A stretch of 64,000 bases of DNA from positions 2,272,894 to 2,336,893 of the forward strand of contig JAYQLI010000035.1 of the NCBI GenBank assembly GCA_038143065.1, written 5' to 3'. The DNA comes from Rhodospirillales bacterium (GTDB taxonomy: Bacteria > Pseudomonadota > Alphaproteobacteria > Bin95). Shown here in pieces: positions 2 through 62,040 of the stretch (its first letter is position 1; every line of letters begins with the position of its first letter). The notes beneath the pieces are model-generated. The model was given only the letters and a program-made list of their open reading frames with translations. It was not told the origin of the DNA and did no database searches. The translations under genes and the position numbers were made by a program.

Positions 2-757
2 CAGAAATTCCTTAACTATCGCAGCAAGTTGCCCAATGCTAACTGGAGTGCCGCCTGAATTATATGTTTCGTGTTTTGGTTTGTCAGTTAGTAGAACGCG
101 CGCCATTGCTTCGGCCATATCCTCGACATGGATCACACAACGCATTGTATCGGCATGTGGAAACGTAACAGTGTTTCCTCTCGCTGGCTGGCACATGCAG
201 TTTACATGGTCGATAGAGCCAAATTTTTTATCTGGGCCCGTAACGTTAGCAGGACGAATACAGGTGATTGTCATTCCATAGTTGCGACGATAGTCATGGG
301 CTTGCCACTCGTTGATGGTTTTATTCACCGCATACTGAGTGTCTCCATAGCGCTCATCGTCCTCATTAACCAATCTTTCGCCGAATTTTGATTGTTCGCC
401 AGATACAGCTACCGATGAGGCAAAAACAGTATGTCTGACACCAGTCCGTCGTGCAGCTTCAAAGCAGTTGTCCATCCCTTGGATATCTAGCTTAAATGCA
501 ACGTGGGGCTCGAGCTCACCGATAAAGTAGGAGAGGTTGATAACGCGCTCCGCCTTTGTTTCGATCATGGCGCCAATTACATCATCAAATGCTGTAACGT
601 CACCTCTAATAACTCTGACATTTTCTAGATCATCGAACGCTTCGGCAGCGCGAGTTGTATCGATGTCCATGACAGTCACCTCATGGCCATCTTTGTTTAA
701 AATTGGTACAAGCCGGCGTCCTATAAAACCTGCGCCACCAATTGCTAAAATGGACAT
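2..757 (-). CDS. NAD-dependent epimerase/dehydratase (extended SDR), runs off the window edge
   Basis: Not in the ORF track; manual translation from ATG at 757 gives MSILAIGGAGFIG (GxxGxxG), VFASS, catalytic YAVNK and IHVED. Confidence 0.88.
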   Translation of the reverse strand, partial: MSILAIGGAGFIGRRLVPILNKDGHEVTVMDIDTTRAAEAFDDLENVRVIRGDVTAFDDVIGAMIETKAERVINLSYFIGELEPHVAFKLDIQGMDNCFEAARRTGVRHTVFASSVAVSGEQSKFGERLVNEDDERYGDTQYAVNKTINEWQAHDYRRNYGMTITCIRPANVTGPDKKFGSIDHVNCMCQPARGNTVTFPHADTMRCVIHVEDMAEAMARVLLTDKPKHETYNSGGTPVSIGQLAAIVKEFL

Positions 758-990
758 CTTTCTCGCCTCTCTAAACTAAATTTCCAACAACAAGCCTAAC
801 ACCCCTGGCATCTGTGCAAAATGGGCATTAGCGGCGTTAAGAGAAAAAATTTAGGCATATAAATGCAGAAATGAGGCAGGTTTTGTATCTCTGCGAGGAA
901 AATCTAACAGCGTGTTCGCTAATTGAAATGTCCGACTGCAACAGAAACTCTGAACTTGTTAGACCGGTTTTTACCGCCGGATTCGCAAAC

Positions 991-3926
991 TTAGTTTGCG
1001 GGTCTTACCCTGCATAACAGTGACTTCAGGTTTGTTTGCTCCGATATCGGGCAGCGTTGGGTTTTATCAGTCAGAAAATTCACAGGCCGCCAAGGGTTAA
1101 ATGGTTGGCGCTCACCCCAACCAATAGGCAAAAAGACAGACGTCTTCCGCACTCCAGCTGTTATCCAAGCTCTAGCTTCCACTGACCCGTGAGCCGTTTC
1201 AACATGAACCTTTTGACCGTCACTAATTGAGAGGTCTGCAGCGACTTCTGGGTGTATTTGGCAATATAAATCTGGCCACATTTCTTGCGCCTGCCAAGCA
1301 TAATGCGTCCAGCTGTGAAAATGAGGTGCTGGGGGTCTACCTGTGACTAATTCCATGTTGAAGCCTTCGGCACGAAGTGCAGCTCAGGTCCCTCGGTATA
1401 ATTTTCGATCACACGAGCCCGAGGCGCATAAACACGACCTTTATTGAAGGCATTTTCAACGCCAACTTCTGAGTCATCATCTAAAAGTTCTAAGAAGGGC
1501 AGATCAATAAGTGCTTCTCGTTCCCCATAAAATTTTGGTAATGCAGTCATGCCGTGAACTTGAAACATTGATTCCTGTTTTTCAGTCCAAAATTCGAGTT
1601 TCCCCGATGGAGAGGGGAAGCGATTACCAACACGGGAGCCAACAGCAGTTGTGCCAGGTAGATAAAGAGTTTCTTTTTCCTCGTCTTCTTCAGAGCAGAC
1701 TGGAAATCTAACCCAACGATATGGTTTTTCGTGCAGTCGTTTTTGTGTGACGCCACGCATTTGCTCGGAGTCGATCATTGCCTCGTCCCAAAAACAGGCC
1801 GGGTCCTTCCATCTTTCTTTCAACACATCCTGATAGCCGAACCGTTTCCCAAGCTCGATCCAAATCCAGCCGTCTGGTTTTGCTTGGCCCGGGGGATCAA
1901 TCATTCGATCAATCCAAACGATCCGCCTGTCTTCGCAAGCCCTTCCTATTTCACCCTTTTCAATTCCTGTAGCAGCAGGAAGTACATAATCTGCCCATGC
2001 ACTGGTTTCGTTTGCAAAAATATCAATGTGCACAAGCAGTTCTAATGAAGCGAGTGCCTTCCGGCTTTCAGTCTGATCTGGCCACAGAGCCATTGGATTG
2101 TTGCATGTTATCAATGCCTTGAGTGGGTAAGGAAGGCCTTGGGTCATCGCTGCCGTCCAACCCGTTGGGCTGGTTCGAATGCGAGGGCGAGATATCGGCA
2201 TTCGGCGGTCAACAGGTGCATTAGCTTCTGCTGGCACAGATGCTGACATGTTGAAGTAAGCACCTCCCTTGCGACCCCAGTTTCCTGTGATTGCCGCTAT
2301 AAACATCAGTGCCCGGTTAGACTGCACTGAATTCATGTGCTGATTGATGCCTCGGCTGCCGAAAATTACGCAACCGTCTGCGGTGGCAATCTCTTCTGCC
2401 AGCTTCTTTATATCAGAAACTTTAATATCCGTTATCGGCGCGGCCCACTCCGGTGTATACCCTTGGGAAAAAATAAAATCGCGCCACTTTTCCCAACCTA
2501 TGACCCAGTCTTGGCAAAACTTAGCATCATGTAAATCGTTAGCTAGAATATGGTGGGCTATGGCCAGACTGAGAGCCATATCGCCTCCTGGTCTGATGGC
2601 TAAATGTTTGTCAGCCTTAGATGCTGTTACCGTAAAGCGAGGATCAACAACGACCATCTTAGCGCCTTTTTTGAGGCGCCAATCATTGATCATGCCAAAG
2701 TGAACGGGTCGGGTTTCCGCTTGATTGTCGCCGATGTAGACGTAAAGTTCAGCTGCTCCTAAATCATCCTCTACGTAACTATTGCCGGAGCCACCAACAC
2801 CTTGAACGAGGGTATATGCAATGTTTTTACCGCTTGAGCAGTAAGGTTCTGTTGTTTCAACGTTTGGCGTCCCCCACATTTGCGAGAAGATCCGGATATA
2901 GCCCTTGTTAGTTAATGTTCCTGTTCGTGTTCCTGTGAAAATTCCTAAGGCATCTGGTCCATATTTTTCGCGCACTCCAACCAGTTTGGCGGCAATTTCA
3001 TCTAGTGCTTGGTCCCAGGAGATAGGTTCAAAAACATTCTCTCCACGCGCGCCCACTCTTTTTAATGGAGTTTTTAGCCGATCTTTTGAGCCATAAAGCT
3101 GCAAAGTAAGTTGAGATTTTGGACAAACGCGGCCTTTGAGTTTTGGATCAGCAGGGTTGCCTGTGACTTTAACTAATTTGTTTCCCTTGAAATGGAAATT
3201 TGTTGTGCAAGCATTGAAGCAAATGTTGCAACCACCTGGTTCAATCCGGTCCGCCTCTCTTTCTTCCCGAGGCAGTCCATACGGAAAAGTGGTGACTTCA
3301 TCTTTTTGACTCCAGCCGGAGTCAGTGACTGCTGGGTTAGCCTTATCAGTGCTAGAAAAGTCACTTGCGACTTTTATGAGGCGATCCAAGTATATAGTCG
3401 CTGGACCCAACAACCATGGGTCGTAGTCTATTGATTGTCTGCCTTCTGCCTCAAATTCAGAAATCAGATCATCGCGATCGCCAAAGCGTATTGCGTTGGT
3501 GAGGCAGACCGCCTGACAAGCAGTAGTTAGATCCCCATTTGCGCGACGGTCATGGCACAAGTCGCATTTTACTGCATGGTGTCCCTCAGCATCAAAACCC
3601 ATGGCGCCATATGGACATGCAGCAACACATTCACCACAGCCAACACACCTGTTCTCGAGGACACTTACAACGCCTGTGTTGGGATCCTTAATGATTGCTT
3701 TGGGCTCCACTGGGCAGGCGCGCAGACAGGCTGGTCGTTCACACTGTTGGCAAGCTAATTTTAAAAAATCCAGGGATGCTGATCCATCATTGCTCTGGCC
3801 ACCAAGCCACAGAACGCGATTTCGGCGCTCACCTGGGCCAAGTCCGTGTTCTGCCTTGCAGGCTACTTCGCAACTTTTGCAGCCTGTGCATCGCTCAACA
3901 TCAATTAAAAGTGCAAGTCGGCTCAT
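991..3926 (-). CDS. DMSO-reductase-family molybdopterin oxidoreductase fused to an N-terminal DmsB/NrfC-like 4x[4Fe-4S] domain (frameshift near 1387)
   Basis: N-terminal CTGCKSCEVAC, CQQCERPAC, CVGCGECVAACPY and KCDLC; FS0 motif CNICFNAC...CPK; DRLKTPLKR, VVDPR, ADYVLPA; ORF 991..1356 is the C-terminal dinucleotide-binding domain (IHPEVAADL..DG). Confidence 0.9.
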
Positions 3927-3929
3927 AGA

Positions 3930-4720
3930 TCAGAAATCCAAAGCCAAAAAGTGGAACCAATAAGGTTCACCGCCATTTGCCGCGTACTTTGCGAAGAACA
4001 TGACAATAGCTATATGCAGAAATAGGCCAATAATAAACGCCCAAGCAAGTAATCTGTGTGACAGGCGCCAAAAGATTTGGGCGCGCGCGAGTTTTTCCTT
4101 AGCGCCCGTTAAACCCTCCTCTATTGCCGCTAGCCGGCGGTACCTGAACGCCTTTATGGGGGAGCGCAAGTAATGCTTGATTTTAAGAGAAAACTCAGCC
4201 TCCTGGGCGGAAGCTTCGATACTTTCTAAAAGAAAGCCTTTGCTTTGAATTATTTCATAAAGGCGTTGCCGCTTATCTGGATCTGCCGCTGCGAAGCCGC
4301 CGCGCTTTTCACCGAATGTCATTGACGCTAGCCGAGATCCTTTGGTGCGGCCCCAAAGTCCTAGAATAATAAGCCCCACTATCATCAGAAGCAGAATCGC
4401 AGGGGGCGACTGAGGTTCTGAATACTATGTGACAGGACAAGGGAACTCCCAATACTCGCTAACCAAACATGCAGGCGAAAGCCATATTTGCCTGGACCGC
4501 CAAAGCGTTTTGCTAGGACTGCTACAAAAGATGAAAGTAGCAAAAGAGCTCCAAGCACAGCCGCAGATTGTAGAATTGGGCCGCCAGATTTTCCCCATTC
4601 ATTAGGTAAAGAGGATGTTATGATTGAAAAAAACACGCCACCAATCAGCGACAGTATTACAATCGTTTTTAGTGAGCGGTTAGGTAAATCTAAACTCTTT
4701 TTAGACCCAACAGGTTTCAA
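3930..4720 (-). CDS. Polytopic membrane protein with four transmembrane His residues, possible heme-b anchor (frameshift near 4403)
   Basis: ORFs 4385..4720 and 3930..4385 join if one C is added to a C-run; hydrophobic helices carry FRLHVW, LSHS, WRLSHR and FLHI. Confidence 0.65.
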
Positions 4721-5553
4721 TTTGGTTTGTCGCCTTTAAGGGTAATCCGATGCATCCTTCGACGTTGGCCCTGGTAGTCATTAATCGCGTGATGTTGGGT
4801 GGCGCGATTGTCCCAAACTGCGACAGATCCGGGCTGCCATTGGAAACGGCATGTAAACTCAGGCCGAATTATATGATCGCAAAGCCAATGTATGAGGCCG
4901 CGGCTTTCATCTTCGGTCATACCTTTAAACCGGACAGTGTGAGATCGATTGACGAATAGTGACTTTAGGCCAGTCTCAGGATGTGTGCGCACAACTGGAT
5001 GGTCTGACTCATAGGATTGGGCGGCTGAGTTAAATGTGCCTTTCATCGCATCTAGGCGAGCCATGCCGGCTGCTCGGCCACCTTTGTAACCGTGATCTGA
5101 CGAGTTAATAGCTCTCAAGCCATCCAAGGCTTTTTTTAAACCAACGGATAGAACGTCGTATGCCGCTGCTGTATTGGCAAAGAGAGTGTCGCCCCCAAAT
5201 TCGGGTGTTTCTAGCGCATATAAAACGGTGCCCATCGCGGGTTCAGGCATGTACGAGGTGTCTGAGTGCCAGGACCCACCAAAGTTTTTTGCGTCTGTTT
5301 CGGTTTTGAGAATTTCTGTAACTTCTGGCGTGTCCTCTAAACCTCTTATGAACGGATAAATATCTGGTTCACCAAAAATGCGAGCAAATTCGCTCTGAGA
5401 TTTTGGTGTTAACTTCTGTTCGCGAAAGAAAATAACTTTGTTTTCAAGAAATGCGTCCCGGATTGCAGCCGTCTCACTATTGGTAAGACCATCTGAAATA
5501 CTGATATCTAGAATTTCTGCTCCGAGGGCTCCAGAAATGGGACGAATTCGCAT
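4717..5553 (-). CDS. TauD/TfdA-family Fe(II)/2-oxoglutarate dioxygenase
   Basis: WHSDTSY, GGDTLFA, HPVVRTHPETG, WDNRATQH, terminal R-x-T. Confidence 0.93.
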   Translation of the reverse strand: MRIRPISGALGAEILDISISDGLTNSETAAIRDAFLENKVIFFREQKLTPKSQSEFARIFGEPDIYPFIRGLEDTPEVTEILKTETDAKNFGGSWHSDTSYMPEPAMGTVLYALETPEFGGDTLFANTAAAYDVLSVGLKKALDGLRAINSSDHGYKGGRAAGMARLDAMKGTFNSAAQSYESDHPVVRTHPETGLKSLFVNRSHTVRFKGMTEDESRGLIHWLCDHIIRPEFTCRFQWQPGSVAVWDNRATQHHAINDYQGQRRRMHRITLKGDKPN

Positions 5554-5559
5554 AATCTA

Positions 5560-6105
5560 CTATTCTCCATTTGCTGCCGCGACTGCAGCGATGTTGCGTT
5601 CTATATCATAAGGTCGCGGCGCTAAATCTTCCGCATCCCATTCAGTTCTGTGGACACTAAAAAAATCCCCTCCATAAACATGCAAGGCGCCAGTAAGCTT
5701 GTCTAGCGGATTGGTAACTGAGTGGATGATATCCTTTCCAAGAGGCGACACATCTCCCGGTCCCATAGACTTTGCCCCAGCAGCCTCGATGTCATTCTCT
5801 GCATCTTCTGGTAGTTGTCTCCAAAAAATATTGTTTTCGCGCCCCGTATACAGTCCAATTACCGCCCACATTTCGTGATTGTGTGGCATGATCGACATGT
5901 TCCTACCCCAGACTAGGTTGAGGATTGTCAAATCCGGTGAATTATAGATGGGAAAAGCGCCTGCTTTAGAAGGTTCTCCTAATGCGCGGAGCACTTCATT
6001 TGGCTTGGAGCAGGCTTCCTCCAATAGTGCTTTCACCGACGAATGTGAGGAATCTGATTTTACCGCGCTGCGACATTCTTCAACAAATTTATCTAGGTTA
6101 AACAT
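5560..6105 (-). CDS. Cysteine-dioxygenase-like cupin (thiol dioxygenase family)
   Basis: PHNH...IHSV three-His set plus ALHVY motif. Confidence 0.75.
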   Translation of the reverse strand: MFNLDKFVEECRSAVKSDSSHSSVKALLEEACSKPNEVLRALGEPSKAGAFPIYNSPDLTILNLVWGRNMSIMPHNHEMWAVIGLYTGRENNIFWRQLPEDAENDIEAAGAKSMGPGDVSPLGKDIIHSVTNPLDKLTGALHVYGGDFFSVHRTEWDAEDLAPRPYDIERNIAAVAAANGE

Positions 6106-6172
6106 AAAAATTTTTCCGAATCATTGTCTGATACAGGAAAAATTTCATGCTATAACCGATCAAGTCAAATAA

Positions 6173-6994
6173 TTATCCACTCTTAATCATCTCGTCCCAG
6201 TCATAGAGGCGCGGCTCCTTAGCCAAAAATCTTCGGACGGCTTCATGATGAAAATTTGTTTTGCGCATGGCCTCTTGGGCGGCGCACTCTACGTCGGTCA
6301 TTTCTGCTTGGCTTGAAGAGTGGCTTCGGTGAAACATTGCTTTAGCGAGAGCTTGAGCTTCAGCAGAACCTTTTGCGATATTTTTGGCCATCCAAATAGC
6401 GCGGTTTAGGAGTTCTTCCGGAGAGCATATTTCATTTATCAGGCCTAAATTTTGTGCCTCCTCAACCCCAAAAGATCGTCCGGTATAGGCCAATTCTTTA
6501 GCTCGACGGGCGCCGATAGCCCGAGGCAAGGTGTAGGCAATTGCCATATCTGGGATTAAGCCAATTCTTCCAAACACTAAGCAAAATCGTGCTCGCGGTG
6601 TAGCTAACATAATGTCAGCTGTCATTGCTAAGCTAAAACCACCACCAAAGGCGATACCATCGACAGCTGCAATGGTAGGTTTGGGAAGATTAATCAGTCT
6701 GTAGAGTACCCCAAGTGTTTTGCGAAGGCCCGAATTCCTACTTTCTGCCGGTTTACCATCACTTCCTTGCATACGGGTTACGTCGGCGCCCGAGCAAAAA
6801 TTGCCACCCGCTCCACTAATTACGAGAGCGCGAACGTCATCGTCTTTTTCCACTCTATCAACAAGTTTTGGAAGGTCGTGGTCGAATATCCTCTGACTAA
6901 TGGCATTCATTTTTTGGGGTCTATTCAGAGTAAAGACTGCAATTCCGTCTTTTACTTCAAATAAAGTATCCTGATGCGACGGGTTGAGGGGCAT
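6173..6994 (-). CDS. Enoyl-CoA hydratase/isomerase family protein
   Basis: TLNRPQKMNA, FCSGAD, PTIAAVDGIAFGGG, GLIPD. Confidence 0.93.
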   Translation of the reverse strand: MPLNPSHQDTLFEVKDGIAVFTLNRPQKMNAISQRIFDHDLPKLVDRVEKDDDVRALVISGAGGNFCSGADVTRMQGSDGKPAESRNSGLRKTLGVLYRLINLPKPTIAAVDGIAFGGGFSLAMTADIMLATPRARFCLVFGRIGLIPDMAIAYTLPRAIGARRAKELAYTGRSFGVEEAQNLGLINEICSPEELLNRAIWMAKNIAKGSAEAQALAKAMFHRSHSSSQAEMTDVECAAQEAMRKTNFHHEAVRRFLAKEPRLYDWDEMIKSG

Positions 6995-7137
6995 TTTTAT
7001 TCTCCCATAAAAGCCTTTAAACGCCTAAACGATATCGATAGCAGCGAAAAAGCAAAAGCTTCTCAAGACTGTTTGCTTGGCCAAGGTATCGCCATTGGTG
7101 ATACTCTCATGCCGAATCTACAGGATAAATTTTTATT

Positions 7138-7884
7138 ATGGCCGTTTCATTTGATCTTTCTAATCACACAGCGTTGGTGACTGGTGCCACCGGAGGTATT
7201 GGTGCCTCTATCGCTCGTACTTTGCACGCTGCTGGGGCAAATCTCGTTATTTCTGGTACTCGGCAGGCATCACTCGACAGTTTGCTTGAGGAGCTTGGGG
7301 AGCGCGTTGTCTCGATTCCATGCAATTTGTCTGATGCCAATGCTGTAAACAACTTAATTAAGAGTGCTGAGGAATCGTGTGGGCCAGTCGATATTTTGAT
7401 TAATAACGCAGGAATGACAAAAGATGGTCTGGCCATGCGTATGAACGATGATGACTGGGAGAGTGTATTGGCCGTCGACCTTTCCGCAGCATTTCGCCTT
7501 TCTCGAGCTGCTTTAAGAGCAATGCTTAAGGCGCGATGGGGGCGGATTATCAATATAACTTCTGTCGTTGGTCACACTGGCAATCCTGGACAAGCTAATT
7601 ATGCAGCCGCAAAAGCATGCTTGGGTGTCATGACTCGCTCGCTGGCTGATTAGACAGCTGCTCGAGGGGTCACAGTTAACTGTGTTGCTCCAGGGTTTAT
7701 TCAAACTGCAATGACAGATGCTCTAAACGAAAAACAGAAGGCAGTAATTCTTGAGCACATTCCTGCTGGTAAGATGGGAACGCCGGAAGATGTTGCAGCA
7801 GCCGTGCTATATCTTGCGTCTGACGCAGGGGGATACATTACTGGTCAATCCATCCATGTAAATGGCGGCATGGTAATGTTGTAA
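7138..7884 (+). CDS. fabG: 3-oxoacyl-ACP reductase FabG (in-frame TAG at 7651-7653, probable sequence error)
   Basis: TGATGGIG, NNAG, GNPGQANYAAAK; reading continues in frame past the TAG (RGVTVNCVAPGFI...NGGMVML); directly upstream of acpP. Confidence 0.92.
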
Positions 7885-8042
7885 GGCCCAGCTAAAGGTC
7901 TTGCTTCTTATATTTCTGTTACTAAAGATATCCTTGAAAACCAAAAAACGAGTATTCCATTGCTTTTTTGTAGCTTTAGGCATTGCGAAACTGCTGCGAA
8001 ACCCGTTATTCAGTTAATAACGAAATTCCAAGGAAAACGGGC

Positions 8043-21912: not shown

Positions 21913-22742
21913 ATGTCGACTTATGAAACAATCATCGTTGAGCCCATAACGCCACGGATAGGCGCCATGGTCTCAGGTATCGACCTTGCTAAGCCACTAG
22001 GCAATCAAGAATTCCAAGAAATTCATGACGCTTTGATGCGTCATGAGGTTATCTTTTTTCGTGATCAGCACCTTACACTAGAGCAGCATAAAGAATTTGG
22101 GCGTAGATTCGGCGAACTGGATATTCATCCTGGTTCGCCTGGACCAGAGGGACACCCAGAGGTTCTGGTGATCCATGCCGATGAAAATTCAAAGTTTGTA
22201 GCTGGTGGTCTCTGGCATTCAGACGTCTCGTGCCAAGAGGAGCCACCGATGGGCTCTATCTTGCATCTGCACACGATCCCTTCGTGCGGGGGTGACACTC
22301 TCTTCGCTAGCGCTGGGGCAGCATATGACGCGCTGTCAGAACCCATGAAAGATTTTTTAGCCCTCTGACAGCGGTGCATTCTGGAGAGCATGTGTACCGA
22401 GGACGATACAAGCACCAGGGCATAGATGATGCCGGTAAGGCCTATCCAGAGGCGCGTCATCCCATAATCCGCACTCATCCAGTCACAGGACGAAAATCAC
22501 TTTTTGTAAATGAGGGATTCACTGTTCGTATTCCAGAGTTGGAGAAAAGAGAGAGTGCGGCGCTTCTCAAATTCTTAACTGATCATATAACCCAGCCTCA
22601 ATTCCAAGTGCGTTTTCGATGGGAAAAGCACTCTGCGGCTTTCTGGGACAATCGTGCAGTCCAGCATCATGCTATGTGGGATTATTTTCCTGAAGTGAGA
22701 TCTGGTTATCGGGTTACGGTCGAGGGCAGTCGACCTTTTTAG
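21913..22742 (+). CDS. TauD-family dioxygenase, the most TauD-like of the three copies (frameshift near 22362)
   Basis: WHSDVS, PPMGSIL, GGDTLF, HPIIRTHPVTGRK, WDNRAVQH. Confidence 0.92.
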
Positions 22743-39143: not shown

Positions 39144-40006
39144 TCACGCGGGAGTTGTGCCTCGCAAGCAGGTGCGGTGCAGTATGCGAGGGTGCAAAGA
39201 GGCATCAAAATTTGGGTCAGCTCGATGCAGGAGGCAACGATTGTCCCACATCAATACGTCTCCGTTTTGCCAAGTGTGGCGGTGGCAGAATTTCTGTTGA
39301 GTAGCGTGTTCTTCAAGAGCGATGATTTTTGCGCGGCCTTCTTCCAATGGCCTACCTTCGATATGAGAAGCGTGCATACCCATAAAAGAGCTTTTCGTCC
39401 TGTCTCAGGGTGAAAGCGAGCTAAAGGCCAAGCATTGGTCGGGGCATCCCTTTTTTCTTCCTCATTCATAACCCGTCCTATATTTTCTCGGCTGAGCTCC
39501 CAGCTATGGACAACTTTGACGTCATCTAAAGCTTCTTTTTCGCTTTTTGATAATGCCTCATACGCCGCATACATATTTGCGAAGCAAGTATCGCCGCCGT
39601 TGGGTGGCAGGACTTGAGCATGTAGAATGGTTGCCATTGAGGGTAGGGGCCTGAATGATTTATCCGTGTGCCACATGTCAGAATTAACTTTACCCGTTGG
39701 TTTTCCGTCAGGACCTAAATTCGAAACCACATGAACTAGCGGTTCATCCTCTTGGCCTCGATTTCTAAGTGTATGACGCTCTAGTTCGCCAAATTGTTTT
39801 GAAAACTCCACCTGCTCGTGTTTGGTGAGCTTCTGATCTCTGAAAACGAGTAACTGATGCTTGAGAAAGCTTTCATAGATTGTGGCTTGTGTTTCTTTAC
39901 TAAGTGGTTTTGATAAATCAATTCCACGCACCTCTGCTCCTAGTGGTGCTTTTGAGAAGGGACGGATGTCGAGATCAATTTTAGTCTCGTTGGCTTGAGT
40001 AGACAT
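39144..40006 (-). CDS. TauD/TfdA-family dioxygenase (frameshift near 39385)
   Basis: WHTDKSF, GGDTCFA, HPETGRK, WDNRCLLHR. Confidence 0.92.
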
Positions 40007-40082
40007 AAGGTCTTTCTCTTTTTTGTTCGCATCTAGGTACGAATGGTTGGTCAACCTGCGATTAGACACAAGCAGACTTTCA

Positions 40083-42258: not shown

Positions 42259-42466
42259 TAATACTGGATCGCGCCCAAGGTTTCGCTCCCTTGCGGCTCT
42301 ATGCATCTTACTGATTGGTTTGGGGTTGTATGCGGCCCTTGTCACCTCAGTTTTTGATTGGTTGCCAGACCATCTGTTTTTACAGACCTTGTTTATCGCT
42401 TTTTCAGGTCTGGCGTGGGTCTGGCCTGCTATTAAGTTGACTGGCTGGGCTCAAAGGCGCGATTAA
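42248..42466 (+). CDS. Small membrane protein, DUF2842-like
   Basis: Two hydrophobic helices, GLAWVWP. Confidence 0.6.
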
Positions 42467-43227
42467 ATTTTTCTTAAAAGCTTAGCAATGATCATGCGTA
42501 AGGTGCGATTTGGGTCTGGCGCTTGCATTGTTGGCGAGGTGTAATCAAACCCAGCTCTTTTAGCGCGCTTTGCATAAGCATTAACCAAGATTGCTGGAGC
42601 CATTGCTGCACGGTAACCGGTTGGCGCCGTTTTTGCCCCTAAAGTAATTCCACGTTCGATAATCAGCTTCAGATTTTGTTCAATTGGCTCAGGTAGCCAG
42701 GGACGACCGCGAGCTGAATTAATTAATTCTGATCTGGCAATGCCTATTAGCGCATAACCAGTTCCTACATCTTCTGCTAACTTTTCAACGGGAGTGTTTC
42801 GCCAAAGTTCAGCATGAAGAGCGCCACCGGTTGCTCTTGCGTAATTTTCCAGCTCGTCAATACTTTGTACTGGTGCAGGATTAATATCGCGTTCGCGGGC
42901 ATCGATGATGTTTTGGAGGCGATCGGTATCGACTATGCCAGCACCGTGAGCAAAAGCCAGTTCTTCTATAACCGGATGATGTCGTGGACGGCCTTCTTTG
43001 ATTTCATTCAAAGCATCGCGGTGCCATTGAAGACGAATTAGACCGAGGGTTTGCTCTCTGGAATATGGGCGCACTCGTGATAGTTCTAGGTTCCATGCCG
43101 CCAATGCAATGGCATATCTGCGAATCTGTCGCGGCTGAAAAAGAGCAATTAGATAACGGTCTGCATCTAAAGTGCGGAGCTCGTCAGCGCAAAATTTTTG
43201 ATTAGAGATTTGTCGCGAAACGTTCAT
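42463..43227 (-). CDS. Squalene/phytoene synthase-fold protein, NDUFAF6-like with degenerate Asp motifs
   Basis: DADRY, IRLQW.RDAL, HPV, IDARERD, GRPWLP. Confidence 0.8.
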   Translation of the reverse strand: MNVSRQISNQKFCADELRTLDADRYLIALFQPRQIRRYAIALAAWNLELSRVRPYSREQTLGLIRLQWHRDALNEIKEGRPRHHPVIEELAFAHGAGIVDTDRLQNIIDARERDINPAPVQSIDELENYARATGGALHAELWRNTPVEKLAEDVGTGYALIGIARSELINSARGRPWLPEPIEQNLKLIIERGITLGAKTAPTGYRAAMAPAILVNAYAKRAKRAGFDYTSPTMQAPDPNRTLRMIIAKLLRKI

Positions 43228-44065
43228 ATTTCTCGATATACGGAACGCAAAGCCCACGCAATATATCTGCTTCACTAGGCATGAGCATTTCGTCCAGTGC
43301 GTTAAGCTCACCGAGTGCGGGCATTAGAAAATTCGAAGCATACTCTGCTATTGATTTCCGGACCTGATCGACGATGGCTGAATTTGCGCCAGCTAACTCT
43401 GCAAATTTTGATGACGTTAGACCGAGTGGTGCAAAGACCTCATCTGGTAGGGTTAGCAGATGGGCTCCTTTTTTCGCATCCTTCTCCAGATCTCGCATGA
43501 TGTGAACAAGATAGAGCAATATGGCTGAATTTCGAATGAGCTCGACAGAAGGTCTTGGAAGTGTGCTCTCTAGCCGGCCATCCTGTTTTCTTAATGCAAG
43601 GATTTCAATGAACACGGCCGCTGGAGCTGCAGTCGCTCCCTCAGCATAGGCAAGAAAATCTGTCCAAGTATGCATAGGTGTTTCAACGACATCACGAACC
43701 ATAGCTGCAGATAAATTTTCCCAGGGCTTAGGATTTATAACAGCGAAATTGGAAGTGGCGGCTAGTGCTGCATGAGTCGTGTGAAAAAGATCAGTAGTTG
43801 GTGGAAGAGTTCCATAAACAAGGGCAGTAATAGCAGCGTCACGCCAGTGTGTCACAGTCTTAATTGCATTCTCTCTAGCTGCCTCACGATTAGGAAGAGC
43901 AAGAAATTCGTCATCAACGAAATCATCAACCACCCGCATTGAAGCATAAGTTGCGCAGAAAATGTTATAACGGGGCGCGTCTAGAGCTAAGGCAGCCCTC
44001 TCCATTGGGGAGTGCGATGATTTTGCAATTTGAATTGCAGGGTTAAATGCTTTGATCTCGTTCAT
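43202..44065 (-). CDS. Squalene/phytoene synthase-family protein with intact Asp-rich motifs
   Basis: YASMRVVDDFVDD and HIMRDLEKD. Confidence 0.8.
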   Translation of the reverse strand: MNEIKAFNPAIQIAKSSHSPMERAALALDAPRYNIFCATYASMRVVDDFVDDEFLALPNREAARENAIKTVTHWRDAAITALVYGTLPPTTDLFHTTHAALAATSNFAVINPKPWENLSAAMVRDVVETPMHTWTDFLAYAEGATAAPAAVFIEILALRKQDGRLESTLPRPSVELIRNSAILLYLVHIMRDLEKDAKKGAHLLTLPDEVFAPLGLTSSKFAELAGANSAIVDQVRKSIAEYASNFLMPALGELNALDEMLMPSEADILRGLCVPYIEKYERFATNL

Positions 44066-54249: not shown

Positions 54250-55419
54250 TTAAGGAAGAGCTCTTAACAGACGATCAATTTCATTTTCGTTGTTATAGTA
54301 GTGCACGGACGCACGAAGGATTGAAGGTAAGCGACGCCGTGTTGCATCAATCAAGGTGCTTGATGGAATAGATACACTGACATTTATTCCCATAGCTCTT
54401 AGATTTTTCTGGAGTTCAAAGGGTTCTTCCCCGTCTACTATAAAAGTAACGATACCGCATTGCTGACTACCGATATCCGTTAGTTTAATATTTGAGCGCT
54501 CTGAAAGTCGTTGGCGCAATCTAAGAGCGAGCTTTTGTATACGCTCCCATATATTTTCTATGCCAATTTCTAGCGCATAATCGACAGCAGCACCTAATCC
54601 CAGCCTTGCTGCATAATTATTTTCCCAATTTTCGAAGCGCCTCGCATCTGGTCGTAGCGTATATTCGTTTAGAGAAGTCCACTCCGCAGCAAAATGGTCG
54701 ATAATAACCGGCTCAAGACTTTGAATAATATCTTTCCTTACGTATAAAAAGCCAATGCCGCGTGGTCCTCTCAAATATTTCCGTCCGGTTGCAGAGAGCA
54801 AATCGCAGCCGATTTCTTCGACATCAATTGGCATCTGCCCTATGGATTGGCAGGCATCCAGCAGGTAAAGGGCTCCGTGCGCTCTTGCGATCTGGCCAAC
54901 TGCTGCGGCTGGATTCACCAATCCCCCATTGGTTGGTACGTGACTGATTGCTATAAGTTTTACAGAATTGTCCATCATTGATGCTAGGGCGGCGATATCT
55001 AGCTCGCCTGATGCCTGGGAAGGGACTACTTCGACCACCACTCCCTTATTTTTTGCAGCTTGCAGAAAAGCAACGTAGTTGGCGCCATATTCGGCTTCTG
55101 ATGTAATGATGCGGTCACCAGGCTGAAATGGGATAGAATAAAAAGCCATATCCCAAGCGACAGTAGCATTTTCAACAATAGCAATTTCTTTGCTTGATCT
55201 AGCACCAATCAATTTGACGATAGAATCATAAACAGCTTCGATCCGATCGATTTCACGATCGGCTGCCTCATACCCACCTATTGCTGCTTCAAGTTCTAGG
55301 TGTTTGATCTGGGCATCAATGACTGCTCTAGGAGGTAAAGCCGACCCAGCATTATTAAAATGACAGACAAATTCTGTGCCTGGCGTATCTTTCCGGATTT
55401 TGGTTAGGTTGATATTCAC
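54250..55419 (-). CDS. Class V PLP-dependent enzyme, EgtE-like C-S lyase candidate
   Basis: HFNNAG, EAAIGGYEAA, DACQS, SATGRKYLRGPRG, RASVHYYN; no persulfide Cys in the C-terminal loop. Confidence 0.75.
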   Translation of the reverse strand: MNINLTKIRKDTPGTEFVCHFNNAGSALPPRAVIDAQIKHLELEAAIGGYEAADREIDRIEAVYDSIVKLIGARSSKEIAIVENATVAWDMAFYSIPFQPGDRIITSEAEYGANYVAFLQAAKNKGVVVEVVPSQASGELDIAALASMMDNSVKLIAISHVPTNGGLVNPAAAVGQIARAHGALYLLDACQSIGQMPIDVEEIGCDLLSATGRKYLRGPRGIGFLYVRKDIIQSLEPVIIDHFAAEWTSLNEYTLRPDARRFENWENNYAARLGLGAAVDYALEIGIENIWERIQKLALRLRQRLSERSNIKLTDIGSQQCGIVTFIVDGEEPFELQKNLRAMGINVSVSIPSSTLIDATRRRLPSILRASVHYYNNENEIDRLLRALP

Positions 55420-56543
55420 TTCAGACCCAAAATAATCTCATCCGTGTGCTGCCCTACATCAGGACTCAGGCCACGTGGGTCATTATCTTCTAATCTGGCA
55501 ATGCCAGGTGGTTGTGGGACGGGAATGAGGCCCAAACCTGGCTGGTCAGGCCACGAGAATGTGCCAGCCGTTTTTACGTGTTCATTTGCCAACACATCGC
55601 CATATTCGTGAACGGGTGCGCACATGAGCCCAAGCTCAGCAAAAAAATTAATCCAATGCTCTGCTGATTTGGTTTTGAGGGTTGGGGCAAGGAGGGCGTT
55701 GATCTCTGTTGCTCGCCAAATTCTGTCATTATGGGTGGAAAATTCTGGACGTGATTTGAGTTCGGATAAGCCAAGTGCATCACATACTTTTTTCAAAATG
55801 GTCAGGCCGGTTCGCAGACAGATTAATGAAGCCTGTTGTTGTCTCAAAAGTTCCCACAGGCACCCCATTGGCTGGAGGTTGGCCACCTTGTGCGTGGTGG
55901 CGAACAAATTGCCCAGCCTGCACAGCCATTGCACTTTCCATCAGTGAAATATCAAGCTTACGTCCACCCATACCTTTGTCACGGGCAATAAGCGCTGTTG
56001 CCACCGCCTGGTAAGCGTATAAGCCAGTAATATAATCGATGATCGCCATGCCTACCCGCATTGGTGATCCATCTTTATCCCGAGTTATTGACTGAAGACC
56101 CGTAAAAGCCTGCAAAATTGCGTCTGTGGCGGGGCGTTTGGAGAGTGGGCCCACAGGTCCAAAACCTGATATGGAGAGATAAATTACATTTGGATTAACG
56201 CTTTTAACGCTTTCGTAGTCGAGGCCTAGACGTTCAATGACGCCTGGCCGAAAGCTTTGTGTTACAATATCAGCTTCAGAGGCTAATTTCAGAGCTGCCG
56301 CTTTTCCTTCTTGTGATTTGAGGTCTAGGACAACAGATCGCTTGCCTCGGTTAGTTGATAATGACTGTGCTGACTGATCGCCATGAATGCGACCCCCATG
56401 TTTCGCACCCAATCCCCACTATCGGGTTCTATTTTAACGACGTATGCACCGTATTGAGCCAATAGCATTGCAGCGTATGGGCCAGCTATCCCCTGAGCAA
56501 TATCACAGACCTTGATGCCGTTTAGGGGAAGATAGTTAGACAT
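55416..56543 (-). CDS. CaiB/BaiF family III CoA-transferase (two frameshifts)
   Basis: AGPYA..LLAQYGA.V.KIE, NRGKRS, FRPG, SISGFG. Confidence 0.9.
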
Positions 56544-57765: not shown

Positions 57766-58101
57766 TCACTTTTTGCGTGCAAGTTTGTCCAAAAAGATGG
57801 GGTCGCCATGAGGTGTCGCTTCAGCAGCATGAGCCCAGGCGATCTGACGATTGGTCTGTTCCGAAGCTGTTGTTAAACCCTTTGCAACGATGAGTTTTTC
57901 CAGAGCTGTGAGCCAATGCAAATAATAATCATCACCATCCTGTTTTGACCCTGCACCTAGTAATTCTTGAGAAAGCGCCTCCGAGAATTCGGACCATTCG
58001 AAATTACCGCGTTTGTGTAACTCAACAGCAAGAGCAAAAGCTTGCGCCTCCCAAGGAGCTGCAAATTTAGGGCTTTCAGGAAGGTCATTAAGCTTGTTCA
58101 A
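57766..58101 (-). CDS. Nitrile hydratase accessory protein, P14K-like
   Basis: FAAPWEAQAFALAV.L, W.EF, YYLHWL.ALE, TPHG.P; start codon uncertain. Confidence 0.88.
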   Translation of the reverse strand: MNKLNDLPESPKFAAPWEAQAFALAVELHKRGNFEWSEFSEALSQELLGAGSKQDGDDYYLHWLTALEKLIVAKGLTTASEQTNRQIAWAHAAEATPHGDPIFLDKLARKK

Positions 58102-58747
58102 GATAATCATCCCAAAGATCAACATAGGTGCAGGAGTTAGGTTCAGCGTCTTTACCCCATAACTCTTCTCCTTCGAAACGAACTGCATAAAGCCACTGAG
58201 GTTTTTCACTCAGACCCGCTGCATTAGTATCGGGAAATACAAAGACGCCATGTATTCGATCAATTTTTCCTCGGCGACCTCTTACATATCGAGGTAATCG
58301 AGTGTGGTTGGCCGGGTGAATATTTTTGGCTATCACAAGATCTCCTATGCTAAATTTTGCGCTCCCAACTTCTTGTCTTCTTGCTGAACCGCCCTTTTCT
58401 AGGGCAGTTGCTACATCTTCTGCTTTCAATATTCGGGATAATGTTTTCGGCGCATTTCGAGCTTTCTTAGACTTAAGTTCGCTCTGCGAGATTAGCTTTT
58501 CGGTCAAGAAGTAGCGACTCTAACCCATGAAGCCAATGCTCATAATATGTCGTCTCCAGATATTTGCCTGGGCGCATAGTTTCTCGTGCAAAGCGGGCTT
58601 GGTCTATGTTCCATTGACCTGTAAACCCCATGGCAAGGGTAACGGCAAAGCATCTTCTTTCCCACTCTTGGCTGAATAAAGGTTCGTTTGGGTCTGGGTT
58701 TATTGGACCGTGGCCGTGGCTCCCCCAAGATCGTGTGCCCCATTCAT
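58088..58747 (-). CDS. nthB: Nitrile hydratase beta subunit (frameshifts near 58722 and 58505)
   Basis: [32 protein letters not shown]...ELWG. Confidence 0.92.
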
Positions 58748-60138: not shown

Positions 60139-60210
60139 GATTAAAATGAGGCCATTCCAACAACTGGCAGGTCGTGGCATGCTTTCTAAATAAATCAAGG
60201 AGGAACTTTG

Positions 60211-61044
60211 ATGCCTGATAACGCCATTTTCCCCGAGCCCACACCGCTCGAAGCTCACCCCGACTATGAACCAGTTTCTGCTGCTGAGTTGGTAGAGCTC
60301 AATGACCGGCTCAATGTTTGTTTAAAGTTGCGCACCCTGGCTATTGGAATGAAGCAATTTCGTTCTTTAGAGGAAATGAACCAGGTAAAAGGTTTAAGAC
60401 GGCCCATGGAGGGGCGTCGCCACACCATGTGCCAGCTGGTTACTCAGAGCCGCATGGCAGGGTTTACTCTTGGAGTAACTGCGGAGAACGTCCGCCCTAA
60501 TGGTAATTGTGGAGGTGTTCACGGTATCGACCTCCCTGATGAAGGGACACTAGATGGTTCTCATATGACTGGAGTTTGGTTTGAGAATCAGACAGCGGCA
60601 GCAGCGCATCAGGAGCATATGCCGCGTCAGGTATATGGCACCTATGTAGCAACAGTAGTCTCTCCAATTCGGGCAGGGCGATTAGATCCTCCCGACATAG
60701 TTATGTTCTATGGTACCCCAGCCCAGATCATCATTTTCGTTAATGGCCTGCAGAATAAGAGGTATCGCCGTTATGACATGTCCATCACTGGCGAAAGTGC
60801 GTGTGCTGATAGCTGGGGCAAGGCTTTACTAACAAAGGATACCTCTATTTCTATCCCTTGCTTTGCAGAACGCCGTTATGGCGGTGTGGCTGATGATGAG
60901 TTGCTAATTGCAATGCCACCACACGAATTTAAGCGAGGCGTTGAAGGAATGGAGACCTTATCTAAAGTTGGTCTCCGTTACCCTATTCCACCTTATGGAC
61001 CTCATGCAGATCCATCGGAGGGAATGGGAAAATCCTATGGCTAA
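60211..61044 (+). CDS. DUF169-like protein
   Basis: CQLV..SR, PDIVMFYGTPAQ, ESACAD, PCFAERRYGG..DDEL; AGGAGG RBS. Confidence 0.75.
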   Translation: MPDNAIFPEPTPLEAHPDYEPVSAAELVELNDRLNVCLKLRTLAIGMKQFRSLEEMNQVKGLRRPMEGRRHTMCQLVTQSRMAGFTLGVTAENVRPNGNCGGVHGIDLPDEGTLDGSHMTGVWFENQTAAAAHQEHMPRQVYGTYVATVVSPIRAGRLDPPDIVMFYGTPAQIIIFVNGLQNKRYRRYDMSITGESACADSWGKALLTKDTSISIPCFAERRYGGVADDELLIAMPPHEFKRGVEGMETLSKVGLRYPIPPYGPHADPSEGMGKSYG

Positions 61045-62040
61045 TACTGCTCGGCCGACCACCCGTCGTTTGCAGCAAATGGTGCGTGCTTACCGTGAAG
61101 CGGGCGCCCTGATGGCTGCAGTGGAGCTCGACCTTTTTACTCATATAGCCAGCGGGGCAGATGATGAGTCATCTCTGACCAAAGCTATGGGACTCCAGCC
61201 GCTTCATGGCGAAAGAATCATCATAGCGATGCTTGGGCTTGGTCTTTTGGAACGAACGGCCGGCAAGCTCACACTTGCTGACGACGTCGAGCGATTTTTA
61301 GTGAAAGGTAAAGCAAGCTATGCCGGCGAGTGGATGCTATTTACCAAACCTGATTGGGACGATTGGGGAAAATTATCGGAAATTTTAAAAGAAAAAGCTC
61401 CTCCGGTATTGGAGAATAAGACTGTTGCGGGGATTACTGTCCAAGAGGCTAGACGCTATCACCGAGGAACATACTCGATTGGACGTGGTGCTGGTCGACT
61501 ATTTCTTAATCAGGTTGATCTCACGGGCAAAAAACTGTTGATGGATATTGGAGGGGGTCGGGCGCCTATTGTATTGAGGCTTGCAAGCGCTACCCGGATC
61601 TCAAGGCTGTTGTCTTAGAAATGCCTGCTGTGGTGCCGGTTACTCAAGAATTTATAGATGAGAGTGGCCTTGCTAATCGAATTGAGGCTCGAGTTTGTGA
61701 TTTCAATCATGATCCTTTCCCTGAGGGAGCAGATATAGCCGTTATGGCATCTAACTTGCCTATGTATGGTCGAGAAGCGATTGGAGCCGTTGTGCACAAG
61801 GCTTATAACGCGATGGCTCCGGGAGGGACATTTCACCTGATTGGCGAAGCTCTAGACGCAAGTCGATCTGGCCCTTCAGACCCTGCCCTTTGGGGGCTGG
61901 CCCAGGCTATTAACAACACTACAGGAATTGCGCACTCAGTTTCTGAAGTTGAGGACTACCTTTCATTAGCTGGCTTCACCAATGTAGAGACAACTCAATT
62001 TGTAGAAGGGATTTTGCAGAGAACTAGTGGACAAAAATAG
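61037..62040 (+). CDS. SAM-dependent methyltransferase with N-terminal dimerisation domain (frameshift near 61555)
   Basis: AAVELDLF, MDIGGG(S)G, L(E)MP.V, DF, PGG. Confidence 0.85.

Follow-up and report, generated by a model that had tools for sequence, protein, structure and literature searches.

A conserved dioxygenase–molybdoenzyme gene cluster in uncultured marine Alphaproteobacteria with a possible role in organosulfur oxidation

Results

Four adjacent genes, two of them split in the assembly

The stretch of DNA analyzed here (the window: 64,000 nucleotides, positions 2,272,894 to 2,336,893 of contig JAYQLI010000035.1 in the Rhodospirillales bacterium assembly GCA_038143065.1) carries on its minus strand four adjacent genes, which encode a cupin related to thiol dioxygenases, a TauD-like dioxygenase, a membrane protein with five transmembrane segments (5-TM) and a fusion of an iron-sulfur (Fe-S) protein with a molybdenum (Mo) enzyme (Table 1). 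An original prediction, made from the letters of the window, had read these genes as one operon. Its junction lengths were exact when the open reading frames (ORFs) were rechecked: 6 nt between the cupin and TauD-like genes (5554–5559), a 4-nt overlap between the TauD-like and membrane genes (4717–4720), and 3 nt between the membrane and Mo genes (3927–3929). The co-directional order and these tight junctions, with the same order kept in relatives, bear out a single operon-like unit. All four genes are real, but two of them are split by a frameshift in the window, which the prediction had missed.

The membrane gene is divided into ORFs of 111 amino acids (4385–4720) and 151 amino acids (3930–4385), with the break at a C5 run, and the Mo gene into ORFs of 859 (1347–3926) and 121 (991–1356) amino acids. 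In the relative G008, which is 97% identical, both are single ORFs, of 263 and 978 amino acids, respectively. Contigs from four public runs (two DNA metagenomes from different studies and two metatranscriptome libraries), compared over positions 900–7800, supply the missing C of the Mo gene in all four cases, and the missing base of the membrane gene is restored in all three runs that cover it (X15 has no cover there). Since the missing bases are present in these contigs and the genes are intact in G008, both frameshifts look like assembly errors, peculiar to the assembly rather than to the organism. The same two lines of evidence rule out a reading of the breaks as pseudogenes or genome decay.

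Table 1. Genes of the cluster and the two single-base deletions that interrupt them in the window
Feature	Position	Strand	Basis or remark
Thiol-dioxygenase-like cupin	5560–6105	minus	181-amino-acid ORF; phmmer search of the PDB, conserved residues, AlphaFold2 (AF2) model
TauD/TfdA-family Fe(II)/2-oxoglutarate dioxygenase	4717–5553	minus	278-amino-acid ORF; PF02668
5-TM membrane protein	3930–4720	minus	263 amino acids if intact; two ORFs in the window; four invariant His
Fe-S/Mo fusion protein	991–3926	minus	978 amino acids if intact; two ORFs in the window; Pfam domains
1-base deletion breaking the Mo gene	1384		Contigs of X1, X5, X15 and X17 insert C behind 1384
1-base deletion (homopolymer run) breaking the membrane gene	4401–4404		Contigs insert G behind 4401 (X1, X5) or A behind 4403 (X17)

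The four-gene arrangement is conserved within one family

For comparison with the window's genome (G000), 15 loci were fetched from relatives in two genera of one family. Thirteen hold all four genes in the same order; G014 has only the membrane and Mo genes, and the remaining locus runs off its contig. Across the two genera, at 57–98% protein identity, the genes retain their order and their tight or overlapping junctions, and the four-gene arrangement is more than chance. The original prediction would have been undermined had the genes not occurred together elsewhere; they do so in these relatives. The set is confined to one family (7 of the 80 best cupin loci). An orthologue of the Mo gene is present in all nine other genomes of the window's genus, in most of the second genus, and in none of seven genomes from a third genus of the same family. 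The hosts of the four-gene cluster are uncultured estuarine and marine alphaproteobacteria.

The genes on either side are less constant. An enoyl-CoA hydratase gene (6173–6994), an epimerase gene (2–757) and FabG flank the cluster in only two of the 15 relatives' loci (L011 and L012, from the two closest genomes) and, among 80 metagenome loci carrying the fusion protein, in three near-identical contigs (L114–L116). Other relatives have CtaA, HhH-GPD, SDR and HAD at these positions, which are unrelated housekeeping genes. The hydratase, epimerase and FabG were therefore ruled out as parts of the pathway, and the proposal that the hydratase and the epimerase/dehydratase handle the carbon skeleton falls with them: they are local neighbors only.

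In the second genus, a co-directional ogt gene (O6-methylguanine-DNA methyltransferase) lies between the membrane and Mo genes, replaced in one genome by a di-heme cytochrome c peroxidase (inserted genes at L021:2557–3096, L022:5709–6227 and L023:6305–7645).

Contigs of relatives from the two metatranscriptome libraries, at about 95–99% identity, cover 26 of 30 and 30 of 30 bins of the cluster region, and one RNA-library contig of 3214 nt spans 3079–6290, from the 5′ part of the Mo gene through the cupin gene. This is a weak hint that the cluster is expressed in relatives, as DNA carry-over is possible and one contig need not equal one transcript. A scan of positions 600–7300 gave no decisive promoter or terminator: four promoter-like sites were returned where 7.5 were expected, and 15 terminator-like ones where 7.3 were.

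The fusion protein joins a four-cluster ferredoxin to a molybdoenzyme

The Fe-S/Mo fusion protein matches the Pfam domains Fer4_11, Molybdop_Fe4S4, Molybdopterin and Molydop_binding. Residues 1 to ∼160 correspond to a four-cluster ferredoxin of the PsrB/DmsB kind, fused to a catalytic subunit of the PsrA/PhsA kind that is predicted to hold Mo in a bis(pyranopterin guanine dinucleotide) (bisPGD) cofactor. Sixteen Fe-S cysteines, the FS0 cysteines C233, C236, C240 and C268, and C363 are invariant in all eight sequences compared. Thermus thermophilus PsrA (2VPW) is the best match in the PDB (1.4e-65), with PsrB matched at 2.7e-20, and the cysteine at the PsrA Mo-ligand position is conserved. Judged by these features, the protein is a member of the Mo/W-bisPGD (DMSO reductase) superfamily. 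The nearest solved relative thus belongs to the sulfur clade of polysulfide/thiosulfate reductases, whereas placement in a non-sulfur clade would have spoken against the original prediction.

The N terminus opens directly with a CxxCxxCxxxC cluster motif. There is no signal peptide, and the lack of an export signal points to a cytoplasmic location. The missing signal peptide, the fusion of B and A subunits and an anchor that is not of the NrfD kind all agree with the earlier description of a cytoplasm-facing Fe-S/Mo enzyme built differently from SoeABC.

The protein scores below every NCBIfam equivalog cut-off (Fdh-alpha, 314 of the required 666 bits; PhsA, 294 of 694). Formate dehydrogenases have a Cys/Sec-His motif at the Mo ligand. 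Although formate dehydrogenase is the best NCBIfam match, we set this assignment aside on the sub-cut-off score and on the presence of Ser, not His, after the Mo-ligand Cys.

Among 401 sampled alphaproteobacterial genomes the fusion occurs in five (E ≤ 1e-120). Metagenomes yield 762 protein clusters (E ≤ 1e-100) with generic names, and the named matches are all metagenome-assembled genomes. The fusion together with a four-His anchor is present in Alpha-, Beta- and Gammaproteobacteria.

The membrane protein is a probable di-heme anchor

The membrane protein has five hydrophobic segments, with the histidine pairs H84/H98 and H222/H236 (each pair 14 residues apart) in TM3 and TM5. They bear out the 4-His membrane protein of the original prediction: none of the four varies among 16 orthologues or in a set of 18 sequences whose identity goes as low as 34%. 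No Pfam family was assigned: DUF4405 (E 0.06) and Ni_hydr_CYTB (E 2.3) match over ∼25 residues each, and there is no significant profile match to the cytochrome b anchors NarI, FdnI/Ni_hydr_CYTB or DUF4405. A search of the Atlas with the membrane protein returned only clusters named "hypothetical protein". The protein is a probable di-heme b anchor on the quinone side.

A complex model of the Fe-S domain (residues 1–215) with the membrane protein scores 0.84, against 0.00 for the best of three controls; the mark used is reached by 58 of 80 solved complexes and by 2 of 110 mismatched pairs. Contacts agree between runs to at least 89%, and the predicted local distance difference test (pLDDT) of the partner is at least 82. 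On the membrane protein the contacts fall on residues 1–14, 71–81 and 125–211, corresponding to the N terminus, the TM2–TM3 loop and the long TM4–TM5 loop, all on the same side of the membrane if the protein has five TM segments and an inside N terminus. The model supports binding of the Fe-S domain to the membrane protein, although part of its success may be likeness, since solved Fe-S/anchor complexes exist in the superfamily.

Two candidate sulfur dioxygenases

The TauD-like protein matches PF02668 over its full length (3e-65). Its PDB matches are Pseudomonas putida TauD (3e-64), RdpA (1e-58), Escherichia coli TauD (2e-56) and AtsK (5e-51). H96, D98 and H254 align with the iron triad, and R265 and R269 with residues for 2-oxoglutarate (2OG) and sulfonate. 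The protein thus has in common with both TauD enzymes the fold and family, the HxD...H triad and both arginines. Of the E. coli residues described as binding taurine, His70, Asp94 and Asn95 (the accessible part of PMC9304159), His70 is replaced by Tyr66 and Asn95 by Gly92, and the Asp94 position is occupied by Phe91 or Asn90. The score against the NCBIfam taurine dioxygenase (NF007104), 252.3 bits, is also below the cut-off of 313. On this comparison the substrate is probably not taurine; the family named in the original prediction stands, but taurine dioxygenase proper does not.

The genome G000 (4.6 Mb) has 44 PF02668 matches, or ∼30 or more genes after fragments are merged, an unusually large TauD-type expansion.

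The cupin is more distant from known families, with no Pfam match even at E up to 10 (CDO_I, PF05995, and PCO_ADO included) and none in NCBIfam. A phmmer search of the PDB finds the P. aeruginosa 3-mercaptopropionate dioxygenase (MDO) at E 5.7e-8, as well as Azotobacter MDO and mercaptosuccinate dioxygenase. H75, H77 and H128 align with the metal-binding H89, H91 and H142 of P. aeruginosa MDO, forming a putative 3-His iron site, while H142, Y144 and R153 align with its His157, Tyr159 and Arg168, the last of which we take to have a role in carboxylate binding. None of the six cupin residues varies among 14 diverse homologues. Thiol dioxygenases have an outer-sphere Ser-His-Tyr triad; here the Ser position is Ala140, and the His and Tyr (H142 and Y144) are present. 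In an AF2 model of moderate confidence (pLDDT 71; predicted template modeling score 0.70), Foldseek finds only thiol dioxygenases among the top 50 listed PDB matches, with 18–20% identity to the MDO structures. Taken together, the alignments and the model indicate that the cupin is a relative of thiol dioxygenases, nearest to MDO, in a distinct family. PDB matches, the invariant site and Foldseek thus all sustain the original description of a thiol-dioxygenase-like cupin.

The cupin family is large, with 5293 homologues and at least 591 genome loci. The TauD-like, membrane and Mo genes lie beside it in only seven of the 80 best cupin loci, all from the window's family. Counts of other neighbors around these loci, and some of those around the Mo gene below, are approximate, as the crude ORF caller miscalls genes in loci of 65–70% GC.

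Outside the window's family, the cupin (55–61% identical) often lies between a 2OG oxygenase resembling isopenicillin N synthase (IPNS) and a protein of the metallo-β-lactamase (MBL) fold. With the same ORF caller, an IPNS-like gene (DIOX_N and 2OG-FeII_Oxy) was found in 11 of the 80 loci and an MBL-fold ORF overlapping the cupin end in 12 (for example L035:9497–10330 and L036:7923–8981, with about 10 more). This makes a second recurrent setting in which the cupin accompanies a 2OG oxygenase.

The membrane and Mo genes form a module with recurrent sulfur-related neighbors

The 80 metagenome loci carry the full-length fusion at 59–100% identity. In 73 of them the Mo gene is immediately preceded by the membrane gene; in the other seven the contig ends <230 nt upstream. 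The same pairing is present in all three loci from two other alphaproteobacterial families (L111–L113), whose remaining neighbors show nothing consistent. The widely conserved unit is this two-gene module of membrane and Mo genes, with or without TauD. The full four-gene set occurs in six of the 80 loci and any cupin match in nine. A TauD-family gene, co-directional and directly upstream of the module, is found in 20.

We placed 90 Mo proteins on a FastTree tree, with 24 raw rows scored as having TauD, 41 as lacking it and 25 as uninformative. Rows L021–L023 had first been scored as lacking TauD owing to the inserted gene; after correction, 38 of 65 informative rows are without it. One clade of about 25 rows, including the window's family, carries TauD proteins of 60–99% identity. 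A separate, well-supported clade (L181–L192) carries a TauD protein of only 34–35% identity. TauD-linked modules in two separate Mo clades imply at least two TauD acquisitions.

Two loci of the second clade, L189 and L192, combine ComA, a sulfatase, TauD, the module, a family III CoA-transferase and a CDO_I (PF05995) cupin. In four loci of another lineage (L167, L172, L177 and L180), TctCBA and a TauE/SafE sulfite exporter lie downstream of the module, and in a low-GC group (L125, L126 and L128) a second TauD gene lies just downstream. Neighbors elsewhere are unrelated to sulfur: a zinc-dependent alcohol dehydrogenase with an aldehyde dehydrogenase (L178–L184), or a PAS-GGDEF-EAL protein, a redoxin and a methyltransferase (L132–L147).

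The stretch L189:1908–17757 is rich in organosulfur genes throughout, with ComA (phosphosulfolactate synthase family), sulfatase, GntR, LysR, TauD (35%), the module, family III CoA-transferase, IclR, the CDO_I cupin, an EamA transporter and a MocR-type regulator; L181, L185, L188, L190 and L192 resemble it. In a high-GC lineage (L167:10840–16907; also L166, L172, L177 and L180) the module is followed by amidohydrolase_2, TctC-TctB-TctA, TauE/SafE and a Crp-type regulator. A thioredoxin-like 2Fe-2S ferredoxin lies downstream of the module in L161, L164, L169 and L177 of this lineage.

Relation to characterized systems

In the NarGHI complex, a Mo enzyme facing the cytoplasm is wired through four clusters to a 5-TM anchor, where two His pairs hold two b hemes; the Mo ligand is Asp. 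The window's enzyme is like it in architecture only, since its Mo ligand is Cys, its best matches are of the Psr/Fdh type rather than Nar, and its anchor has no Pfam match. PsrABC/PhsABC (2VPW) offers the best solved matches for the Mo and Fe-S parts, with the FS0 motif and the Mo-ligand Cys conserved. However, its A subunit is Tat-exported, its B subunit separate and its C subunit of the NrfD type, whereas the window's enzyme is predicted to be cytoplasmic, is fused and has no NrfD-type PsrC (PF03916 has no match in G000). In further contrast, the hosts of the window's type are aerobic and the partner enzymes O2-dependent.

The three-subunit SoeABC of Ruegeria pomeroyi and Allochromatium vinosum (as given in the accessible part of PMC6335251) likewise has a Mo-bisPGD subunit, a four-cluster Fe-S wire, a membrane anchor, a cytoplasmic active site and a link to organosulfonates. 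Its subunits are separate and its anchor resembles NrfD/PsrC, in contrast to the B-A fusion and the 5-TM four-His anchor described here. A SoeABC-like set lies outside the window in G000 (G000:C35:2435444–2439968; L204:2444–6969, minus strand), made up of a Mo subunit that lacks a signal (955 amino acids), an Fe-S subunit (240) and a membrane subunit of the DmsC family (308); a similar Mo gene of ∼960 amino acids is present in most relatives.

In the thiol catabolism of Advenella mimigardefordensis (Mdo-Acd-CoA-transferase) and Variovorax paradoxus B4 (Msdo), a thiol dioxygenase acts first and sulfite is the end product. According to the accessible part of PMC5373536, sulfite is released from the sulfinate directly, by CoA activation and a desulfinase or spontaneously (mercaptosuccinate, 3-mercaptopropionate). 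That part also attributes the sulfite step in V. paradoxus B4 to a putative molybdopterin oxidoreductase, mentions five sulfite dehydrogenases in one strain, and gives the Advenella 3-mercaptopropionate cluster as LysR, a family III CoA-transferase, Mdo and TctC. The enzymes of these pathways, MDO and mercaptosuccinate dioxygenase, are the window cupin's best PDB matches, and LysR, family III CoA-transferase and TctC recur as neighbors of the module. In contrast, the window's cupin has no CDO_I match, and its cluster has a TauD-type enzyme in place of a desulfinase or CoA-transferase.

Discussion

A tentative model for the cluster

We tentatively favor a model in which sulfite-releasing dioxygenases feed a cytoplasmic sulfite:quinone oxidoreductase of new architecture, the whole forming an aerobic unit of organosulfur catabolism; we regard this as possible, if somewhat short of probable. 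The cupin would oxidize a thiol, probably a carboxylated one, to a sulfinate, and the TauD-like enzyme would hydroxylate the carbon beside a sulfonate (or sulfate-ester) group to give an aldehyde and sulfite. Both routes would converge on cytoplasmic sulfite, since sulfite is lost from many sulfinates either spontaneously or once they are activated. The Fe-S/Mo protein would dock from the cytoplasmic side on the long TM4–TM5 loop of the 5-TM protein and convert sulfite to sulfate at its Cys-ligated Mo-bisPGD site. Two electrons would pass from FS0 through the four [4Fe-4S] clusters to two b hemes (H84/H222 on the inner side and H98/H236 on the outer) and on to quinone. The module would then be, in function, a second and differently built SoeABC. 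The sequence comparisons show what the genes are, the cofactor-binding residues, the missing export signal and the conserved pairing and neighborhoods; we infer heme binding, which way the electrons move and what each enzyme acts on, sulfite at the Mo site included.

This model would account for clusters with TauD only, for those that contain CDO, for the link to TauE and for the many stand-alone modules. That most modules stand alone fits a general substrate such as sulfite. Several observations nevertheless weigh against it. The SoeABC-like set already present in G000, with its similar Mo gene in most relatives, would make a second sulfite dehydrogenase partly redundant. The TauD-like enzyme is about as close to the phenoxypropionate dioxygenase RdpA and the alkylsulfatase AtsK as to TauD, so sulfite release by it remains putative. 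TauD homologues (48–58% identity) occur in 43 of the 401 class genomes, against five with the Mo fusion; as they are often found where the module is missing, their clade is not restricted to it and the link is not reciprocal. The TauD adjacencies are also clustered on the Mo tree, with a minimum of four changes, no cultured carrier was identified among the carriers found, though the complete genomes G014 and G122 may come from isolates, and a 5-TM di-heme anchor under a cytoplasm-facing Mo enzyme is also the design of NarGHI, a reductase.

Alternative functions

The last of these points leads to a different view of the module, that the Mo enzyme acts on other substrates, either as a NarGHI-like, quinol-driven reductase of S- or N-oxides or oxyanions, or as a dehydrogenase for a compound such as thiosulfate, with the TauD-like substrate not a sulfonate. 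The parallel in architecture, the failure to reach any NCBIfam equivalog cut-off, the near-equal similarity of the TauD-like enzyme to RdpA, AtsK and TauD, and the non-sulfur neighbors in some lineages all lend it weight. Set against this, CDO-type cupins, TauE, sulfatase and ComA recur in several lineages, and both partner enzymes are O2-dependent, a poor fit with a respiratory reductase of the anaerobic type; a formate dehydrogenase variant also conflicts with the Ser after the Mo-ligand Cys. We consider this doubtful, though it deserves to be kept in sight.

It is also conceivable, if unlikely, that the four proteins act in a linear order, with the cupin making a sulfinate from a thiol, the Fe-S/Mo enzyme oxidizing it to a sulfonate with oxygen from water, the TauD-like enzyme releasing aldehyde and sulfite, and the SoeABC-like complex oxidizing the sulfite. 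The module would then be a sulfinate:quinone oxidoreductase, an activity undescribed in bacteria, joining a thiol dioxygenase to a desulfonating dioxygenase of the TauD type; we give this assignment a low probability. The product of a thiol dioxygenase needs a step from S(IV) to S(VI) before a TauD-type enzyme can act on it, and the transfer of an oxygen atom to an S(IV) oxyanion is a typical reaction of Mo-bisPGD sites; we count both in its favor, together with the gene order cupin-TauD-membrane-Mo and its tight junctions. The SoeABC-like set in the genome and its relatives means that the module need not be a sulfite dehydrogenase, a second lineage has independently combined CDO_I, TauD and the module, and cupin R153 falls on Arg168 of MDO. 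Neither a bacterial sulfinate dehydrogenase nor this Fe-S/Mo fusion nor DUF4405 together with this enzyme was the subject of any paper found in our literature search. However, most TauD-linked modules have no thiol dioxygenase nearby (for example L121/L123, L125–L130 and L141), most modules have neither partner, and the association with the TauE sulfite exporter favors sulfite. The sulfinate pathways described in the accessible part of PMC5373536 also remove sulfite directly, rather than through a more inert sulfonate. The route from thiol through sulfinate and sulfonate to sulfite in the original prediction is one of two sulfur readings, plausible but not the more parsimonious one.

We think it very improbable that there is no functional link at all, with dioxygenase genes that merely adjoin the module or a cluster that is decaying. 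With 44 TauD-family matches in G000, a TauD neighbor would be no rarity in itself; the window's copies of two of the four genes are broken, and the four-gene set is limited to one family. Yet the breaks are absent from all four runs at 1384, from the three covering runs at 4401–4403 and from G008, and order and junctions persist between genera at the protein divergence given above. An unrelated TauD (34–35%) occupies the same position in another clade, and a rough estimate from about 30 TauD genes in 4.6 Mb puts the chance that one lies directly upstream in the same orientation at well under 1% per locus.

Implications

The cluster is real, conserved and uncharacterized, and provides a usable clue that ties a widespread orphan molybdoenzyme to organosulfur oxidation. 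The new finding is that TauD-family genes immediately precede the module, in no fewer than two independent lineages. With its relatives, the window offers the first concrete substrate hypothesis for the fused Fe-S/Mo and four-His module, and the recurrence of TauD-type, CDO-type, sulfite exporter, sulfatase and ComA neighbors makes sulfite and sulfinates the foremost candidate substrates. Should sulfite be what is oxidized, the module would add a second cytoplasmic sulfite dehydrogenase, of different structure and with relevance for the turnover of organosulfur compounds in the sea. If sulfinates are oxidized, it would fill a missing step in bacterial sulfur metabolism: marine thiols (3-mercaptopropionate) or imported sulfinates (hypotaurine) would be burnt stepwise via sulfinate and sulfonate, ending as sulfite, and each sulfur would deliver two electrons to the respiratory chain.

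Other features of the assembly

Beyond the cluster, the fabG gene (3-oxoacyl-ACP reductase; 7138–7886, plus strand, upstream of acpP and fabF) has an in-frame TAG at 7651–7653 in the window. All four public runs have T>G at 7651 (GAG, Glu), and fabG of G008 is intact at 248 amino acids. TAG recoding was ruled out by the substitution in the runs, and the stop is instead an assembly error.

Same-strand ORF pairs that overlap in different frames lie at 21913–22715, 39171–40069, 42463–44065, 55416–56412, 57766–58507 and 60208–61618. Two more TauD paralogues inside the window are split (G000:C35:2294830–2295608 and 2312064–2312860), and split TauD paralogues across G000 point in the same direction as the assembly-error reading. 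Indel errors seem to recur in the assembly every few kb, so that read support is needed before any other "broken" gene of G000 is called a pseudogene.

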